Below are positions 5,564 through 25,547 of a stretch of DNA of 26,621 nucleotides, one piece after another. The position numbers and the translations under genes are program-made. The DNA is from Candidatus Methylomirabilota bacterium (lineage in GTDB: Bacteria > Patescibacteriota > Doudnabacteria > UBA920 > O2-02-FULL-48-8): contig DATJFX010000008.1 in NCBI GenBank assembly GCA_035495465.1, forward strand, positions 1 through 26,621, read 5' to 3'. Under the pieces are notes generated by a model. That model was not told where the DNA came from and searched no databases. It saw nothing but the letters and a program-made list of their open reading frames with translations. Positions within the stretch are counted from its first letter, which is position 1. Each line of letters begins with the position of its first letter.

Positions 5564-6565
5564 CTATACTGCTGTCTTGCTTCCTTCTGCAGTTTTAACT
5601 TTTTGACTAGATAACTGATTAACCACCCAGTCATATGTTTTTTTCATTCCATCTTTCAACGGTGCATCTGGAGCCCATCCTAGCTTTTGTCGAATAAGGG
5701 TATTATCGGAATTCCTACCCCGGACGCCGAGCGGACCTTCTATATGTTTTATAGATAATTTTTTGCCAGCAATTTCCATAGTTATTTCGGCAAGTTGATT
5801 TATGCTGACCATCTCTTCGGAGCCGATATTTACAGGTCCATCAAAATCTTGAGATGCCATAAGACGCATTACCGCTTCTACGCATTGATCGACATATAGA
5901 AAAGAACGGGTTTGCTTTCCATCTCCCCAAATTTCAATCGTGCCGCCATCCGGCGCTTCTGCTACTTTACGAGCAATTGCAGCGGGGGCCTTCTCTTTGC
6001 CGCCTGTATAAGTTCCTTCGGGACCAAAAATACCATGAAAACGGGCAATCTTAGCTTTTATGCCATATTCCCTGGAAAAAGCTTGATAAACTCGTTCGCT
6101 GAATAATTTTTCAAATCCATAGTCGCTGTCGGGATGCGCCGGATAGACTGAATCTTCTTTGCAATTTGGATTGTTCGGATCTTCTTGATTTTCAACTGGG
6201 TAAACACAGGCGCTGGACGCATAAAAGACCTTGCCCATTTTCCATCTTGCTGCATATTCGCAAGCGTATAAATTAATCATGGCAGAATTATGCAGAATAT
6301 CTGCGTCATATTTGCCAGAAAAAAGATAGCCAGCGCCACCCATATCAGCCGCGAGTTGATACATTTCATCAAATCCATCGCATTCTAATTTCTGCCATGT
6401 TTCAGGCATGCGAAGGTCGCCAATTACAAATTTATCTGCTGCAGTCTGATTAAATTCCGGATATTTTAAATCGACTCCGATAACAAAACTGCCTTCCGAT
6501 TTGAGTCGCTTTACTAAATGATGGCCGATAAATCCGCCAGCCCCGCAGACCAATATTTTTTTCAT
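5564..6565 (-). CDS. GDP-mannose 3,5-epimerase-like extended SDR (NAD-dependent epimerase)
   Basis: GAGGFIG, LAADMGGAGY, SSACVYP, YGFEK, GGKEKAPAA, IWGDGKQTRSF and GVRGRNSDN are hallmark motifs of the GME subfamily. Confidence 0.9.
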   Translation of the reverse strand: MKKILVCGAGGFIGHHLVKRLKSEGSFVIGVDLKYPEFNQTAADKFVIGDLRMPETWQKLECDGFDEMYQLAADMGGAGYLFSGKYDADILHNSAMINLYACEYAARWKMGKVFYASSACVYPVENQEDPNNPNCKEDSVYPAHPDSDYGFEKLFSERVYQAFSREYGIKAKIARFHGIFGPEGTYTGGKEKAPAAIARKVAEAPDGGTIEIWGDGKQTRSFLYVDQCVEAVMRLMASQDFDGPVNIGSEEMVSINQLAEITMEIAGKKLSIKHIEGPLGVRGRNSDNTLIRQKLGWAPDAPLKDGMKKTYDWVVNQLSSQKVKTAEGSKTAV

Positions 6566-16777: not shown

Positions 16778-16784
16778 ATAATTT

Positions 16785-16807
16785 AAAACCCCTATTATAG
16801 GGGTTTT
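16785..16807. terminator. Bidirectional intrinsic terminator
   Basis: AAAACCCCTAT-T-ATAGGGGTTTT, between the convergent hup block and the small-gene island. Confidence 0.75.
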
Positions 16808-16820
16808 ATTTCTTATATTT

Positions 16821-16925
16821 AGGCGAAGGCAGTTGCTTGGAGGAGATTTGCGAGGCCCTTCCAATGGCCGAGCACATAGTCCGCCCGAAGCGGACGTCTC
16901 CGAGAAGCAGCTGCCTTCGCCTTTT
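16821..16925 (+). ncRNA. Structured element A1 (candidate novel ~102-nt ncRNA, copy 1)
   Basis: Homologous to 20168-20271 with at least 7 compensatory base-pair changes. Has a U.G pair and tandem G.A pairs on the + strand and a 3' U tract. Confidence 0.7.
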
Positions 16926-17016
16926 CTCTCAACTGTCGGCGAACAGGAGATTCAATCATTTTTTTCAAAATTATTGAATTCGCCGACAGATGAGAGAGCG
17001 GGAATGACAGTTGCTG

Positions 17017-17268
17017 TCACTCCCGCTTATGAAACGCCGCGACGTTATTTACGTTTTGGCGTTCTTGGGCAGGGGCCTGATGGGCCCTTTCTTCTGCCCG
17101 TAACCGGCGCTGATGCCGGCGAATTTGGCGCCGATAGCTCAACACAATTGGCACACCCATCGCCAGCCCAAAGAGAACAGTGGCACTCGCCTCCAATGTC
17201 TTCTGAGGGCTCATATAGAACCCCAAGCACCAGAGGAGGGCGACAACCAAGGTCAGCCATGATTTCAT
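17017..17268 (-). CDS. Small two-TM membrane protein with basic C-terminal tail (83 aa)
   Basis: MKSWLTLVVALLWCLGF... with SD GGGAG and ATGA coupling to the upstream gene. The longer ORF-track start (17460) was rejected. Confidence 0.75.
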   Translation of the reverse strand: MKSWLTLVVALLWCLGFYMSPQKTLEASATVLFGLAMGVPIVLSYRRQIRRHQRRLRAEERAHQAPAQERQNVNNVAAFHKRE

Positions 17269-17471
17269 GCCACTCCCCTGTGGATGGCTGTGAACACCGC
17301 CCAGATGACGCCTCCGCCGAAAATCATGGCGGTGACGCAAACCTGCCAGATGAGTTCGTCCAGGTTTTCGGACAGCCACTTGGCGGCCGGCCCGTCCTTG
17401 AGACGGATCACGACCGCGAACTTGCTTGACTCGATCTTTTTTTCCACCACGGGCGTCCAAACTACGGTCAT
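17265..17471 (-). CDS. Small hypothetical protein with C-terminal TM helix (68 aa)
   Basis: SD GAGGTG 5 nt before the ATG; hydrophobic C-terminus. Confidence 0.75.
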   Translation of the reverse strand: MTVVWTPVVEKKIESSKFAVVIRLKDGPAAKWLSENLDELIWQVCVTAMIFGGGVIWAVFTAIHRGVA

Positions 17472-17541
17472 AATATCACCTCATTCACCCTCGCCTTTCG
17501 GCTGGGCGATACACGAGTTGACGACGACTATATCCGACTTG

Positions 17542-17631
17542 CCCGTCTCTTAACTCGAACCCTAACATTATGTAAACATTTGTTCAAGCTAACAGACGGG
17601 AGGAGGACAACTTCTTGCAAGTCATCCTCCC
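17542..17631 (-). other. Element C: two abutting hairpins between gene modules, carrying the shared leader motif
   Basis: GGGAGGATGAC/GTCCTCCTCCC, then CCCGTCT..TTAGCTTGAAC/GTTCGAGTTAA..AGACGGG. The G.U pairs favour the minus strand. Confidence 0.55.
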
Positions 17632-17638
17632 TATCTTT

Positions 17639-17887
17639 TCATTGTGCTCCTCCTTGTGAAGCATGCTCTGGTTTCTTGCCCGTGATCCGCAACGTGGGAC
17701 CTTTCGGTCCGATCATCATCACGCGCGCTTCTCCGCGCCGCAGAAACTGGATCGCGAGCGTGTCGGGATAGGGATATCCCAGATCTTCGACGATCCGATC
17801 CCGGATCTGCTCCTTCGACTCCGAACCGTTGATGATGGCCAGGACCCGATCTTGCACGATTGCGACGGAGAGATCTCTGTACTTCAT
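17639..17887 (-). CDS. Small hypothetical protein (82 aa)
   Basis: ATG overlaps the upstream stop, with GGAGG upstream and protein-like composition. Confidence 0.75.
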   Translation of the reverse strand: MKYRDLSVAIVQDRVLAIINGSESKEQIRDRIVEDLGYPYPDTLAIQFLRRGEARVMMIGPKGPTLRITGKKPEHASQGGAQ

Positions 17888-18075
17888 TTTTCCTCCAGGA
17901 TGGCGAGTTCCTGACGAAACTCCTCACACACATAGATTAGAATCCCGAGTTCGTCCGCCTGCTGTTCCACCGTGAGCAGATCGGAATGACCCAACTTCTC
18001 GATGGCCAGCTGCAACGCCGCGATCTTCCTCTTGAGCAATGCTTTCCTGTATTCTCGCCTTTTTCTTCCAAACAT
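17884..18075 (-). CDS. Small helical/coiled-coil hypothetical protein (63 aa)
   Basis: SD GGAGGTG 4 nt before the ATG; heptad-like Leu/Ile pattern. Confidence 0.75.
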   Translation of the reverse strand: MFGRKRREYRKALLKRKIAALQLAIEKLGHSDLLTVEQQADELGILIYVCEEFRQELAILEEK

Positions 18076-18110
18076 TCTTCACCTCCGCCTTTCGGCTGAA
18101 AAAAAGAACT

Positions 18111-18401
18111 TCACTTGGCGCAGTCAGGAATTGAGCCGCCGTCTTCGTAACGGCGTTCAATCTCACTGGCACAGATCCCAAATGGAATCAGAATTTCTTG
18201 GACCTTATCCAGATCCAGGAAACCTGAAGCCTTGGCTTGCTCGCGCAGAGCCTGAGTGGCATGGTCAGCGCGATCTGAATTGCGCTGTCTCGCCTGGCTA
18301 AACACGCGATCCCGCGATCCGCTACGCTGGACCAGCAGGATTAATATCATCAAGGTCCCCAATCCGAGGACCGCCAGGATCTTTCTTCTATTTTCACTCA
18401 T
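18111..18401 (-). CDS. Small bitopic membrane protein (96 aa)
   Basis: RRK followed by hydrophobic ILAVLGLGTLMILILLV; SD GGAGG. Confidence 0.75.
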   Translation of the reverse strand: MSENRRKILAVLGLGTLMILILLVQRSGSRDRVFSQARQRNSDRADHATQALREQAKASGFLDLDKVQEILIPFGICASEIERRYEDGGSIPDCAK

Positions 18402-18420
18402 CGATCCTCCGATCGAGTTT

Positions 18421-18529
18421 AAGGGAACATTCCCTTCCTAAATATTCTATCCTTAGAAAACTTAGGAAGGGAGGGAGTTTTAAGGGTTTACCAATCAAGG
18501 TGTCCAATAAAACTCTCCATCTTCTACTT
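18421..18529 (+). repeat. Structured repeat B1 (core 18465-18529)
   Basis: 65-nt core matches 19367-19431 at 64/65 positions; the 5' stem is conserved in structure. Confidence 0.9.
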
Positions 18530-18536
18530 ACTCCTC

Positions 18537-18803
18537 CTACTTCTTCCAATCCTTGCACCCACCCGGCACGACCGCCATAGAGGTTCCCTGATAGATCATG
18601 CTGGTGTAGATCAGGTTCCCCGAAAGCATGTCACAGGTGGCGACAATCGACCCAGTGCCCATGGTCGGAACCTCGTATCTATAGACCTTGGGCGCCGACT
18701 GCTCGACATACGCTTGTGTGTCGGTCGGCGCAGTACTGCAGGCCGACGTTAATCCAAGACATATTGCGATGCCACTAACCTTTTTCCAATTCCAACGGAA
18801 CAT
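18537..18803 (-). CDS. Small predicted lipoprotein (88 aa)
   Basis: Basic N-terminus, hydrophobic stretch, lipobox-like LTSA|C; SD GGAGGTG. Confidence 0.7.
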   Translation of the reverse strand: MFRWNWKKVSGIAICLGLTSACSTAPTDTQAYVEQSAPKVYRYEVPTMGTGSIVATCDMLSGNLIYTSMIYQGTSMAVVPGGCKDWKK

Positions 18804-18843
18804 CTCTCACCTCCGCGCTTCCGCGCTGGAAAAAGCAGAAAAT

Positions 18844-19029
18844 CTACTGAAAGAACCGCATGAACCAGCTGGAGATCGCTCCCCATTTGGCCCACACAAT
18901 CGCCGAGACGAACCCCAGCATTCCGAGGTTCATCATCACGCCCACAGCAAGGACGAATGACTGAGTGTCCTCACGCAGATACTTCTGCAACGGGCTCAAT
19001 CCCGTTTCGTTCGGATCAGGGATGTGCAT
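18844..19029 (-). CDS. Small single-TM protein (~61 aa)
   Basis: SD AAGGAG; hydrophobic FVLAVGVMMNLGMLGFVSAIVW. The start could be 19029 or 19032. Confidence 0.75.
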   Translation of the reverse strand: MHIPDPNETGLSPLQKYLREDTQSFVLAVGVMMNLGMLGFVSAIVWAKWGAISSWFMRFFQ

Positions 19030-19065
19030 CATCAACTCCTTGCGCCTAGGCGCTGGAAAAGGAAA

Positions 19066-19299
19066 TTAGTGCCTGCCGCGGCCACCGGGCCAGAGTGGCC
19101 CGAGCATCCGTCGGAAGGCATAGATGACGATCCCCAGCAACAACGCCGGGCCGATGATCGACGAGACAAAGTTCTCGATCTTACTGAGAACCATGTAACG
19201 GAAATCCTCGGACAGAACCATCATCGCCACGAGGACGATGAGGACCGTGCGTAGTGCCCGCTGCGGCGAACCGAAGAAAAACTCAATCCAAGCCTGCAT
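19066..19299 (-). CDS. Small two-TM membrane protein (77 aa)
   Basis: SD AAGGAGG 4 nt before the ATG; two hydrophobic helices, each flanked by Arg. Confidence 0.8.
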   Translation of the reverse strand: MQAWIEFFFGSPQRALRTVLIVLVAMMVLSEDFRYMVLSKIENFVSSIIGPALLLGIVIYAFRRMLGPLWPGGRGRH

Positions 19300-19319
19300 G
19301 AGGCCTCCTTAGGTATATC

Positions 19320-19431
19320 AGGGAAACCATTTCCCTTCCGATAAGATCTAAATTTTAAATCTCATTGGAAGGGAGGGAGTTTTAAGGATTTACCAATCAA
19401 GGTGTCCAATAAAACTCTCCATCTTCTACTT
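19320..19431 (+). repeat. Structured repeat B2 (core 19367-19431)
   Basis: Second copy of B1, in the same position immediately after a module's last stop codon. Confidence 0.9.
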
Positions 19432-19625
19432 TACTTCCTCCTGGTAATCTCTCTTGCTCTTGGCGGTGGCACCACGAACTCCACTTCGAGACCGAGTCCA
19501 GTGGCGTGGCTGACAATCAGCTTGCCGATCGCCTCATCGGATGTACGACCAGCCTCCCACTTGCCCTTTTGATTTGCCAAGCAGGCATGCCAGTCATCTG
19601 AGCGCTTGGTCACAACGATTTTCAT
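19431..19625 (-). CDS. Small protein with possible HicB/UPF0150-like fold (64 aa)
   Basis: SD GGAGGTG. WHACLANQKGKWEAGRTSDEAIGKL resembles the HicB pattern y.a....G....G.T.eEA..nl. Confidence 0.5.
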   Translation of the reverse strand: MKIVVTKRSDDWHACLANQKGKWEAGRTSDEAIGKLIVSHATGLGLEVEFVVPPPRAREITRRK

Positions 19626-19653
19626 CTTACACCTCCGCCAAGTGTTGGAACTC

Positions 19654-19791
19654 TTACTTCTGGAAAATGCTTCGGCACTCGTAGAATGCCTTCCAGCATT
19701 CCTTGCCGATCCAGGCGGACACCGGGTTCCGTGGGCGAAAAATCATCAACCACACCATAACCCCGATAAACACGATCTGGAAATAAGCCAT
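19654..19791 (-). CDS. 45-aa hydrophobic peptide (below the ORF-track cutoff)
   Basis: Manual translation MAYFQIVFIGVMVWLMIFRPRNPVSAWIGKECWKAFYECRSIFQK*. SD GAGGTG; fills the gap between its neighbours. Confidence 0.75.
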   Translation of the reverse strand: MAYFQIVFIGVMVWLMIFRPRNPVSAWIGKECWKAFYECRSIFQK

Positions 19792-19828
19792 CTTTCACCT
19801 CTTGCCCATTGGGCTGAAAACGAACTTG

Positions 19829-20023
19829 TTACTTCGCCAACTTGTCGAGAGTCCGGGAGTCGATCTCGATGGGCTGAATCCAGATCTCACGTCTGACCCC
19901 GGCCGCTTTGTGAAGCTGCTGGGTAGTCGGCAGAAGCGCCTCGGCGACGTCTTGATGCAGGTACACGGTCGAGCTCGCCAACTCTTGAAGATTGTTGGCA
20001 TAAACCATAACGTAACCTTTCAT
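19829..20023 (-). CDS. Small hypothetical protein (64 aa), first gene of the island
   Basis: SD AAGGAG before the ATG at 20023 (MKGYVMVY...). Confidence 0.7.
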   Translation of the reverse strand: MKGYVMVYANNLQELASSTVYLHQDVAEALLPTTQQLHKAAGVRREIWIQPIEIDSRTLDKLAK

Positions 20024-20167
20024 GACTATCTCCTTGAAAACTGTGGGAAGCAACTTGCTTCCACAACCCTGAACACTTAGGTAAACTTTAGAGCAACAAT
20101 ATTTCTCTGTGTTACAACATTAAGTATTCAGAATAGTAGAAACAATTTTTCACTTTCTCTTCTCTTT

Positions 20168-20271
20168 AGGTGAGGCCTGCTGCTTCGAAGAGAATTGCGA
20201 GGACCTTCCAATGTCCGAGCTCTTAGTCGCCCTCAGGCGACGTCTCTGAGAAGCAGCAGGCCGAACCTTTT
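20168..20271 (+). ncRNA. Structured element A2 (candidate novel ncRNA, copy 2)
   Basis: Covarying homolog of A1, with three tandem G.A motifs on the + strand and a 3' U tract. Confidence 0.7.
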
Positions 20272-20472
20272 CCTTCCACAATTCTGGAAGCTTATCCAAC
20301 TGCTGGGGCGCAATTATATAATTTCGCCGCTTAGTCGGACAACCCTCCCAGAACTCTGGAAACAAAATAGCTCCCTTTCAGGAGCTATAGGTAAAATGTA
20401 TGTGAAATTTGCTACGTGCCCATTCGGTCCTGAACGAATAGGTACGACTATTCATTTTTTAAACAACTCATA

Positions 20473-24748: not shown

Positions 24749-25073
24749 CTATTTCCTTCCATGTATCATTATAATCATCCCATTTGTAAGCTTTAATTTT
24801 GTGCGAAAATTCTGTGTCAGAAAATTTATACTCTACTCGGGCCGATTTGCCTTGTTGGTGAGAATAAATTTCTTTTTTGTCCAAAACCACGGGTTTGGAC
24901 TCCCGAGTAAGTTTGATTTTACCCAAAGGCGTAGGAAAAATTAAAATTTCAACTTTGCCTGAAACCACCGGCCCATCCCCGGTTTCCATAATCAAATCCT
25001 CAAAGCCTTCTTCTTCAACTTTGAACTTGCGGTGCAATTCTTCTTTTAACGCTTCCCACTTGTCGTCTTGCAT
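24720..25073 (-). CDS. Hypothetical protein (117 aa)
   Basis: Uninterrupted ORF with host-like composition in operon-like spacing. Confidence 0.75.
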   Translation of the reverse strand: MQDDKWEALKEELHRKFKVEEEGFEDLIMETGDGPVVSGKVEILIFPTPLGKIKLTRESKPVVLDKKEIYSHQQGKSARVEYKFSDTEFSHKIKAYKWDDYNDTWKEIDAGNIAPTR

Positions 25074-25081
25074 GTTAACTT

Positions 25082-25474
25082 CTATTCTTCTTCTCCCCTT
25101 GCGGGAGAAGATGTCCGACTTCGTCGGACAGATGAGGGGTTAAAAAGTGCGTTAAATATTTTTTCCTTTACTATCGACAAATGATTAGTGATATCATCGT
25201 TCCAAAACCTCAATACCTTAAACCCAGACTTTTCGAGATAATCTTGTCTTATTTTATCTTTTAATTTCTGGGAATCGGAATTATGAGTACCACCATCTAA
25301 TTCTATTACTAATCGTTTTTTTAGGCAACAAAAATCAACAATATATTGATCTATGGCAACCTGTCGACGAAATTTAAAATTACCAAACCGCCGCCCTTGC
25401 AATAAGAACCAAAGTATCTTTTCTTCAGGGGTTGATTGTTTTCTTAAATTTCTTGCAAAGGCTTGATCTTGCAT
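25082..25474 (-). CDS. DUF559 / Vsr-like endonuclease domain protein
   Basis: ARNLRKQSTPEEKILW, KFRRQ, YIVDFCC, LVIELDGGTH, D..R..YLEKSGFKVLRFWN. Start trimmed to the ATG at 25474. Confidence 0.93.
   Translation of the reverse strand: MQDQAFARNLRKQSTPEEKILWFLLQGRRFGNFKFRRQVAIDQYIVDFCCLKKRLVIELDGGTHNSDSQKLKDKIRQDYLEKSGFKVLRFWNDDITNHLSIVKEKIFNALFNPSSVRRSRTSSPARGEEE
25089..25140 (-). repeat. Double-hairpin repeat, left flank of the DUF559 gene
   Basis: CCCCTCATC-TGTCCGAC/GTCGGACA-TCTTCTCCC/GGGAGAAGA. Confidence 0.8.
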
Positions 25475-25480
25475 AAATAG

Positions 25481-25535
25481 CACCCTCACCTGTCTCCGCA
25501 TTTGCGGAGACATCCTCTCCCGTCAAGGGAGAGGA
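25481..25535 (+). repeat. Double-hairpin repeat, right flank of the DUF559 gene (inverted relative to the left)
   Basis: CACCCTCACC-TGTCTCCGC/GCGGAGACA-TCCTCTCCC/GGGAGAGGA. Confidence 0.8.
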
Positions 25536-25547
25536 AAAATTGAAAAC

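Follow-up and report, generated by a model that had tools for sequence, protein, structure and literature searches.

A structured dispersed repeat oriented with replication in one family of Candidatus Doudnabacteria

Among the closest described systems, the repetitive extragenic palindromes and their REP-associated tyrosine transposases (REP/RAYT) and the IS200/IS605 elements are oriented in step with replication, from which a single-stranded DNA stage can be deduced (PMC5027513, PMC3333891). In the IS200/IS605 paradigm, the hairpin-bearing strand is located on the lagging-strand template (PMC5027513). Here, we analyzed a 26,621-nucleotide stretch of DNA (the window; contig DATJFX010000008.1 of assembly GCA_035495465.1) from a Candidatus Doudnabacteria genome, in which two copies of an element of about 100 nt, A1 and A2, flank an island of small genes. 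A preliminary description of the window had taken them for a pair of structured RNAs that bracket this island and lie antisense to its genes. We found that both belong to a dispersed family of repeats whose polarity follows replication, and we favor, at a probability of roughly 0.55, the interpretation that A1 and A2 are members of a non-autonomous, structured, replication-oriented mobile DNA repeat whose active form is folded single-stranded DNA.

A dispersed repeat family with a common three-way junction

The two copies in the window could be aligned from end to end with a mean column identity of 88% (the value given by the aligner), and they share a three-way junction composed of a long outer stem, a second helix reached through a G.A internal loop, a hairpin containing tandem G.A, and a GC-rich hairpin. 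Their minimum free energies were -65.1 kcal/mol (A1) and -59.4 kcal/mol (A2), with z of about -7.6, and none of 200 shuffled sequences was as stable. The homology of the two copies and their shared junction, as initially proposed, were thereby corroborated, and the compensatory changes listed between them were present. At gathering thresholds, Rfam 15 contained no family for A1 or A2, the only matches in the window being tRNA-Gly and tRNA-Pro, while the best match of A1 in a permissive scan was mir-1451, which scored 22.6 bits (E 0.14) where 85 is the gathering score. The earlier failure to match the element to an RNA family was therefore borne out at both levels of stringency. A literature search likewise returned no described RNA or repeat of relevance from Doudnabacteria or other members of the Candidate Phyla Radiation (CPR), and the element is new both to Rfam and to the literature searched.

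A profile made from A1 and A2 recovered 11 copies, distributed over nine contigs, in the genome that holds the window (G000; 562,515 bases in 70 contigs, 82% complete, 42% GC, with NusB, HU, GroEL, and Fpg among its proteins, which identify it as bacterial). A covariance model of the repeat (R1), which was used for the copy counts herein, confirmed exactly the same 11. Across the 25 genomes of one Candidatus Doudnabacteria family, R1 identified 67 copies in 14 genomes, with 1 to 11 in each, while the same model found the element in none of 36 genomes from other families of the same order and in none of 150 further genomes sampled across the phylum (Patescibacteria). True matches in an exact-pattern scan of 185,579 species genomes all came from the same Doudnabacteria family, and as far as searched the repeat is confined to this single CPR family. 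Among viral contigs in IMG/VR there were four pattern matches, none of which was confirmed by the model, such that carriage by phages is unsupported; a metagenome scan contributed nine extra matches, several of which had identical scores and are possibly duplicate records. This abundance also bears on the bracketing of the island. Because 11 copies in 0.56 Mb give about 0.65 pairs within 3.3 kb by chance, and two such pairs were seen in G000, the placement of A1 and A2 on either side of the island is not significant.

On the strand that reads + at A1 and A2, termed here the GA strand, the repeat is a discrete unit, AGCGAGG...CCCGAGCG, of ~97 nt (range about 97-105 nt) that forms the three-way junction. 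The family-wide termini, 5'-AGCGAGG and CCGAGCG-3', form a helix with a 2x2 G.A/A.G loop, and the GAGG/CCGA motif recurs twice more, once within the second helix and once within the first hairpin. Conserved as well are the junction strands AAUUG, YUUAG, and CGU, while free variation is seen in the two hairpin stems, the two loops, and the 7-8-bp helix that separates the first two G.A motifs. The loop CUUCCAAU, previously considered invariant, is indeed identical in A1 and A2, but across the family it is replaced by CUCUCAAU, UCUUAUAU, UUUCCAAU, GUUCCGCC, and others; we accordingly rejected mimicry of tRNA by its CUUCCAA sequence. The two tandem G.A motifs that had been noted are present, but most copies, including A2, have a third at the base of the outer stem, where A1 has Watson-Crick pairs instead, and in some copies Watson-Crick pairs have been swapped in for tandem G.A. 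A further idea, that the outer stem represents insertion into the loop of a pre-existing terminator, was discarded since the variable helix has conserved motifs on either side of it; an extra outer stem built from the gene end does exist at one site, behind nrdJ. We also observed a 40-nt "solo" hairpin (G010:C6:51625-51664; L046:1501-1540) in which nothing but the outer stem with its G.A motif at the base and a short loop is present, resembling an element whose core has been deleted.

Covariation was very strong. In an alignment of the 67 copies (A4), on which the family counts are based, standard pairs filled 96.7% of the pair cells and changes on both sides were present at 30 of 32 pairs (586 cells); none of 500 shuffles reached the observed pairing, and structures slid along the alignment did not come close either. 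Between A2 and its orthologue in genome G010, compensated changes occurred in all four helices. Perfect compensation in a DNA palindrome can, nevertheless, arise without selection through template switching from arm to arm (quasi-palindrome correction), a process that would also account for the outer stems made from gene ends. Perfect covariation, tandem G.A motifs, and the lack of an Rfam match are thus not enough to establish an element as an RNA gene, and polarity relative to replication can separate DNA-level from RNA-level elements.

Strand asymmetry, replication, and transcription

Several features agreed in assigning the best-preserved structure to the GA strand, as had been argued from A1 and A2. 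Its stems contained 54 G.U/U.G cells versus 17 A.C/C.A cells in the alignment, and, relative to the complement, RNA parameters gave it the higher stability in 63 of 65 copies and DNA parameters in 64 of 65. For A1 and A2, the complement reached only -56.9 and -53.9 kcal/mol, respectively, a gain of 5-8 kcal/mol on the + strand, and the conserved G.A loops become U.C/C.U on the complement. A replication-linked excess of C-to-T changes is usual on the leading strand, and because this excess would shift the wobble count the opposite way, the asymmetry looks to have been selected.

The polarity of the copies could be compared with the replichores in two genomes. In G021, a complete genome in a single contig of 964 kb, the cumulative GC skew had its minimum at ~620 kb (origin) and its maximum at ~150 kb (terminus), the bias in gene strand flipped at the same places, and the GA strand was on the lagging strand in all eight copies. 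The same was true of eight of the ten copies in G022: on contig C1, with a skew maximum at ~310 kb, five of six copies conformed and the sixth was 24 kb from the turning point, while on contig C2, with a skew minimum at ~90 kb, three of four conformed. Thus, for the 18 copies with assignable replichores, the better-folding strand was the lagging strand, i.e., located on the template of the leading strand, in 16. At a local scale, the GC skew of the flanks was negative in GA orientation for 63 of the 67 copies.

Replication and transcription make different predictions at loci where the flanking genes run with the GA strand. Two such copies in G022 (C2:37291 and C2:109381) have flanking genes that are head-on to replication, and here the replication rule was kept, so that it is the transcription rule that fails. 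In the whole data set, GC skew at third codon positions (GC3 skew) was negative at eight of the nine loci whose genes share the direction of the GA strand. Replication predicts the polarity of the repeat better than transcription does, which argues for a process at the DNA level. One of these loci has a further peculiarity, in that two inverted copies with 95% identity (G022:C2:109381-112706; L097:3001-3108 and 6219-6326) flank a 3.1-kb segment; one member of the pair must run against the replication rule, and the cumulative GC skew shows a local dip at this place.

With respect to genes, the copies were intergenic and typically followed, at a distance of 0-20 nt, a stop codon or tRNA CCA end of the opposite strand. 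The next gene downstream in GA orientation was on the opposite strand for 52 of 66 copies, and in 32 of these 52 the element was within 20 nt of that gene's stop codon. Overall, 40 copies lay between two genes antisense to the GA strand, 12 between convergent genes, nine between genes co-oriented with it, and five between divergent genes. Read in the direction of the genes, a stop codon was typically succeeded by the complement of the element, a purine-rich tract, and then the ATG with which the following gene starts. Seven copies came 3-10 nt behind the CCA end of a tRNA encoded on the other strand (Pro-GGG, Pro-CGG, Arg-CCU, and Thr-GGU), and two more followed a partial 3' fragment of tRNA-Pro located 21-150 nt behind a complete tRNA-Pro. 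These fragments were at L102:2935-3000 (G007) and L097:6331-6352 (G022); that of G007 matched the 3' half of the tRNA-Pro(UGG) in the window and not the tRNA-Pro of G007 itself, which suggests transfer or rearrangement at tRNA-Pro loci. Additionally, a locus in G000 (C24; L017:6519-7358) presented tRNA-Pro(CGG), an element, a gene for a 142-aa protein, tRNA-Arg(CCU), and a second element 94% identical to the first, while in G001 and G021 the same genes were accompanied by the first copy only.

Signals for transcription of the GA strand were not detected in positional profiles of the 67 copies (60 nt upstream and 40 nt downstream), which had no -10/-35 and no consistent U tract; the 3' U tract ascribed to A1 and A2 is, therefore, not a family feature. 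The flanks were only T-rich and G-poor, these being the complements of stop codons and ribosome-binding tracts. Near A1 and A2, no promoter-like site was found on the + strand, and the two sites near A2 are both on the - strand, from where the complement of A2 would be read within the leader of the island (Table 1). An independent antisense RNA gene is hence not indicated, and at most loci the transcribed strand would be the complement, a passive passenger in operon mRNAs, leaders, and tRNA trailers. The initial proposal, that the GA strand is a structured small RNA acting on the flanking genes as a cis-antisense regulator or self-cleaving ribozyme, does draw on real properties of the family, including its tandem G.A motifs, a surplus of G.U relative to A.C pairs, the higher stability of this strand, the very strong covariation, and the conserved junction nucleotides. 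We nonetheless consider it improbable. Besides the transcription signals, it is at odds with the dispersal of the element in 67 copies, with its number ranging from 0 to 11 among close relatives and with a recent burst, with the Watson-Crick pairs that take the place of tandem G.A in some copies, and with an orientation tied to replication. Moreover, no Rfam model of a ribozyme or small RNA matched either strand, and self-cleavage is not supported. A look for RNA sequencing runs returned none, and an RNA role for either strand retains some probability.

Within the window, A1 is positioned just beyond the terminator hairpin of the nusB-HU unit, and the small open reading frames (ORFs) between A1 and A2 had no Pfam family apart from a weak, sub-threshold match to LapA_dom in the 147-aa ORF at 17017-17460. 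A leader of ~330 nt around A2 (window 20090-20420) was ~70-80% identical between G000 and G010 (L021:509-840), and its conserved part includes the hairpin CUUCCAGAAUUGUGGAAG, which adjoins the element, and a terminator-like hairpin at 20367-20388 (- strand).

Table 1. Positions of A1, A2, their parts, and neighboring features in the window.
Feature	Position	Strand	Basis or remark
Copy A1	16821-16922	+ (GA strand on +)	R1, 105.1 bits, E 1e-27
A1 outer stem P1	16821-16838 / 16905-16922 (paired)	+	Fold
A1 P2	16842-16847 / 16896-16901 (paired)	+	Fold; adjoins G.A-containing 3x3 internal loop, 16839-16841/16902-16904
A1 P3 hairpin	16849-16874	+	Tandem G.A inside
A1 junction CAUA	16875-16878	+	Fold
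A1 P4 hairpin	16879-16895	+	Fold
Copy A2	20168-20268	+ (GA strand on +)	R1, 107.5 bits; all three tandem G.A loops
Terminator-like hairpin of nusB-HU unit	16784-16808	+	Directly upstream of A1; context, outside the repeat
Promoter-like site TTGACA-17-TATACT	20501-20473	-	11/12 consensus matches; would transcribe the A2 complement into the island genes
Promoter-like site TTGTCC-18-TATAAT	20342-20313	-	~40 nt upstream of the A2 complement
About 10 small orphan ORFs between A1 and A2	17017-20001	-	Context; not shown to be part of the repeat

Mobility, site turnover, and candidate enzymes

Evidence for movement came foremost from genome G020. In a nearest-neighbor analysis, six of its copies, at unrelated loci, were 90-97% identical to each other and far less similar to the copies that occupy the same loci in other genera. 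When these six were compared together with 60-nt flanks, similarity began at (A)GCGAGG and stopped at CCCGAGCG, with sharp edges, while the flanks themselves were unrelated, with no common motif and no visible duplication. A family-wide search for target-site duplications returned only the distribution expected by chance. The only clear duplication among the 67 copies was a 10-nt direct repeat, AGTAGATTAT, on both sides of the G014:C16 copy (L070:2985-3125), which duplicates the stretch where the stop codon of the gene before it and the start codon of the gene after it overlap. Split copies, with the arms separated by a gene, were present in neither G000 nor G021, and a comparison of the region with DNA contigs, whose coverage was fragmentary, gave no joints or deletion forms.

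Turnover at a single site could be followed directly behind nrdJ, the class II ribonucleotide reductase gene, which was compared in 20 genomes (L110-L129). The site was empty in four genomes, which read TAA-ttt-ATG into the next gene, and was occupied by this element in three. At least five genomes had a "type 2" relative that shares the termini (CGCTCGG...CCTCGC in the sense direction) but has a different branched core and was missed by R1; elsewhere there were further structured inserts, with a plain hairpin only in one genome, and within a single genus three different types occurred at the site. In many genomes the last 8-12 nt of nrdJ, including the stop codon, pair with sequence beyond the insert, placing it in the loop of a larger hairpin. 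At the nrdJ site of G000 (C59, ~6310-6500; L113) this pairing takes the form of a 12-nt perfect inverted repeat, AGTAAATGTTAA/TTAACATTTACT. Many other copies are also syntenic across genera: A2 corresponds to a copy behind groEL in G010, and shared sites were also identified upstream of dnaK and at tRNA-Pro-CGG. In this family, therefore, old copies that have kept their sites coexist with turnover and with a recent burst on at least one occasion.

That copies have been conserved for long at orthologous sites in operons is compatible with the co-transcribed complement having been exapted. As a full explanation, this would make the element a host-exapted RNA, with the complement serving as a processing or stability signal in mRNAs or tRNA trailers, like REP and ERIC sequences, and it would be compatible with a mobile origin. 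It accords with the sites kept across genera (nrdJ, upstream of dnaK, downstream of groEL, and after tRNA-Pro), with the 40 of 49 copies between co-oriented genes that are antisense in GA orientation, such that the mRNA carries the complement, with the purine-rich tract and ATG that nearly always follow in the sense direction, and with the - strand promoters upstream of A2, which would transcribe its complement. We regard it as rather unlikely, in that the sense strand is the poorer folder: its conserved 2x2 loops are U.C/C.U, its wobble pairs are three times rarer than its A.C mismatches, and it is the less stable strand in 63 of 65 copies. Orientation, furthermore, follows replication where transcription and replication disagree, and there is no U tract, so that the element is not an intrinsic terminator.

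For the mobile DNA repeat that we favor, a partner enzyme was sought in genomes with high copy numbers. Y1_Tnp (PF01797, Y1/HUH) was not found in G000, G014, G020, G021, G022, G008, or G010, which have 4-11 copies each. In the five high-copy genomes G000, G014, G020, G021, and G022, there was no rve or DDE_Tnp_1, and no IS110-type enzyme beyond one sub-threshold match in G021; among the high-copy genomes, a reverse transcriptase (RVT) was present only in G014. No resolvase was found in G000 or G020. Tyrosine recombinases were represented by a single conserved Xer-like protein in G000, G020, and G021 and by two or three in G014 and G022. The counts of a PD-(D/E)XK_3 nuclease did not follow those of the element, and this candidate was rejected. 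A DUF559 (Vsr-like) nuclease, in contrast, was encoded in all 14 genomes with the element versus three of 11 without it (hypergeometric P ~1.5e-4, phylogeny ignored), a co-occurrence that may itself be phylogenetic. The DUF559 genes are bounded by their own, different hairpin-bearing inverted repeats, and for this reason the nuclease is only a lead. Such loci are seen in the window at 25082-25513 (flanks 25060-25120 and 25480-25540) and in G020 at L088:3950-4400, where the repeats are GCGTTAGGATT...AATCCTAACGC.

The single Xer-like protein, the only recombinase found in G000, G020, and G021 among the families tested, also bears on a reading in which the element is a structure-specific recombination site in single-stranded DNA, analogous to the bottom strand of attC or the folded attP of CTX phage, that is acted on by an Xer-like or other recombinase and kept on the leading-strand template, where folding, and hence loss, is rare. 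The conserved structure, variable core, and conserved terminal helix are attC-like, as is the placement directly behind ORF stops, where the strand that folds is antisense to the ORF and belongs to the leading-strand template, an orientation equal to that reported for sedentary chromosomal integrons (PMC5371416); different core types have also replaced each other at one site. This reading appears very doubtful given that the termini have no R-box consensus (RYYYAAC/GTTRRRY), that G000, G020, and G021 have no second, IntI-like integrase, that copies are scattered among housekeeping genes without cassette arrays, and that no cassette-like gain or loss of adjacent genes was seen at the nrdJ site.

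Returning to the mobile, replication-oriented repeat, the active form would be the GA strand folded as single-stranded DNA, with recognition probably occurring through the conserved terminal helix and its 2x2 G.A/A.G loop, and enzyme-mediated insertion or retention would be specific to one replication strand and tied to the fork. The steps from a replication-oriented repeat to a single-stranded DNA intermediate, and onward to a particular enzyme, are ones that we infer. More tentatively, and as a possibility below even odds, the repeat could represent an undescribed class of element in CPR bacteria, a three-way junction of ~100 nt in single-stranded DNA that is replication-coupled, enters or persists on the nascent lagging strand, and depends on an enzyme unrelated to HUH/Y1, DDE, IS110, or integron integrases; the lone Xer-like recombinase, or one of the small nucleases in which these genomes are rich, such as DUF559, would be options for that enzyme.

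Several observations weigh against the mobile-repeat interpretation. The orientation rule is violated by two of the 18 copies for which replichores could be assigned, and no mobilizing enzyme was found, with G000 and G020 each being only 82% complete. Single-stranded DNA and RNA are indistinguishable from sequence alone, since either one stably accommodates G.U/G.T wobble and tandem G.A. The better-folding strand of the repeat is on the leading-strand template, opposite to the hairpin strand of IS200/IS605 on the lagging-strand template. The many orthologous copies whose structure is kept perfect by compensation in different genera suggest long-term constraint or repeated replacement at the same site and not simple selfish decay, and the near-identity of the G020 copies may in part be due to gene conversion instead of new insertion.

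The genomes of CPR bacteria rank with the smallest and most streamlined known, and they are considered poor in repetitive or mobile DNA. The presence of 8-11 copies of a structured repeat in genomes of ~0.6-1 Mb, with bursts, sharp ends, and a polarity set by the fork, points to an unrecognized mechanism of mobilization or an unrecognized function of single-stranded DNA. The 67-copy alignment and covariance model provide a handle for annotation and for the search for partner proteins.

Comparison with known systems

Miniature inverted-repeat transposable elements (MITEs) of the ERIC, Correia, BOX, and RUP types are intergenic, have a length of ~100-130 bp with terminal inverted repeats, are co-transcribed, and fold as RNA; they have target-site duplications (e.g., TA) and DDE-type partners. 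The Doudnabacteria repeat differs from DDE MITEs in having no target-site duplication and no rve or DDE_Tnp_1 in the five high-copy genomes, and in that its stems diverge with full compensation. Among structured RNAs, the three-way-junction ribozymes and riboswitches in Rfam, Y RNA, and k-turn RNAs share with it a three-way junction, conserved junction nucleotides, and tandem sheared-type G.A, but no covariance model matched either strand and there is no hammerhead, twister, or similar core. Specifically, in k-turn/L7Ae RNAs the tandem G.A is located beside a 3-nt bulge, whereas the repeat has symmetric 2x2 G.A/A.G loops within continuous helices.

Integron attC sites are similar in retaining structure over sequence, in the non-Watson-Crick character of the terminal helix, and in a variable, sometimes branched center. 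They are likewise located directly 3' of ORFs, and their folded strand is antisense to the ORF and, in sedentary chromosomal integrons, belongs to the leading-strand template (PMC5371416). Unlike the repeat, which is scattered between housekeeping genes and after tRNAs, attC sites have R''/R' boxes, IntI, and cassette arrays.

The preliminary description had named a REP family as an identification that would replace its own, and a REP-like dispersed repeat is close to what emerged, but with no Rfam match, no Y1 enzyme, and a different size and architecture. A REP is a 20-40-nt hairpin with GT(A/G)G or 5' GTAG, in contrast to the ~97-105-nt three-way junction with AGCGAGG/CCCGAGCG ends. REP/RAYT requires a RAYT-type Y1 transposase, while the high-copy genomes of the repeat are without Y1, and the conserved target tetranucleotide of the REP and IS200/IS605 systems has no counterpart here. 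What the repeat shares with REP, bacterial interspersed mosaic elements (BIMEs), and IS200/IS605-derived elements is that all are non-coding, extragenic, imperfect palindromes at the 3' ends of genes and within operons, with no target-site duplication, a variable copy number, and a replication-coupled orientation, seen for the repeat in 16 of 18 copies.

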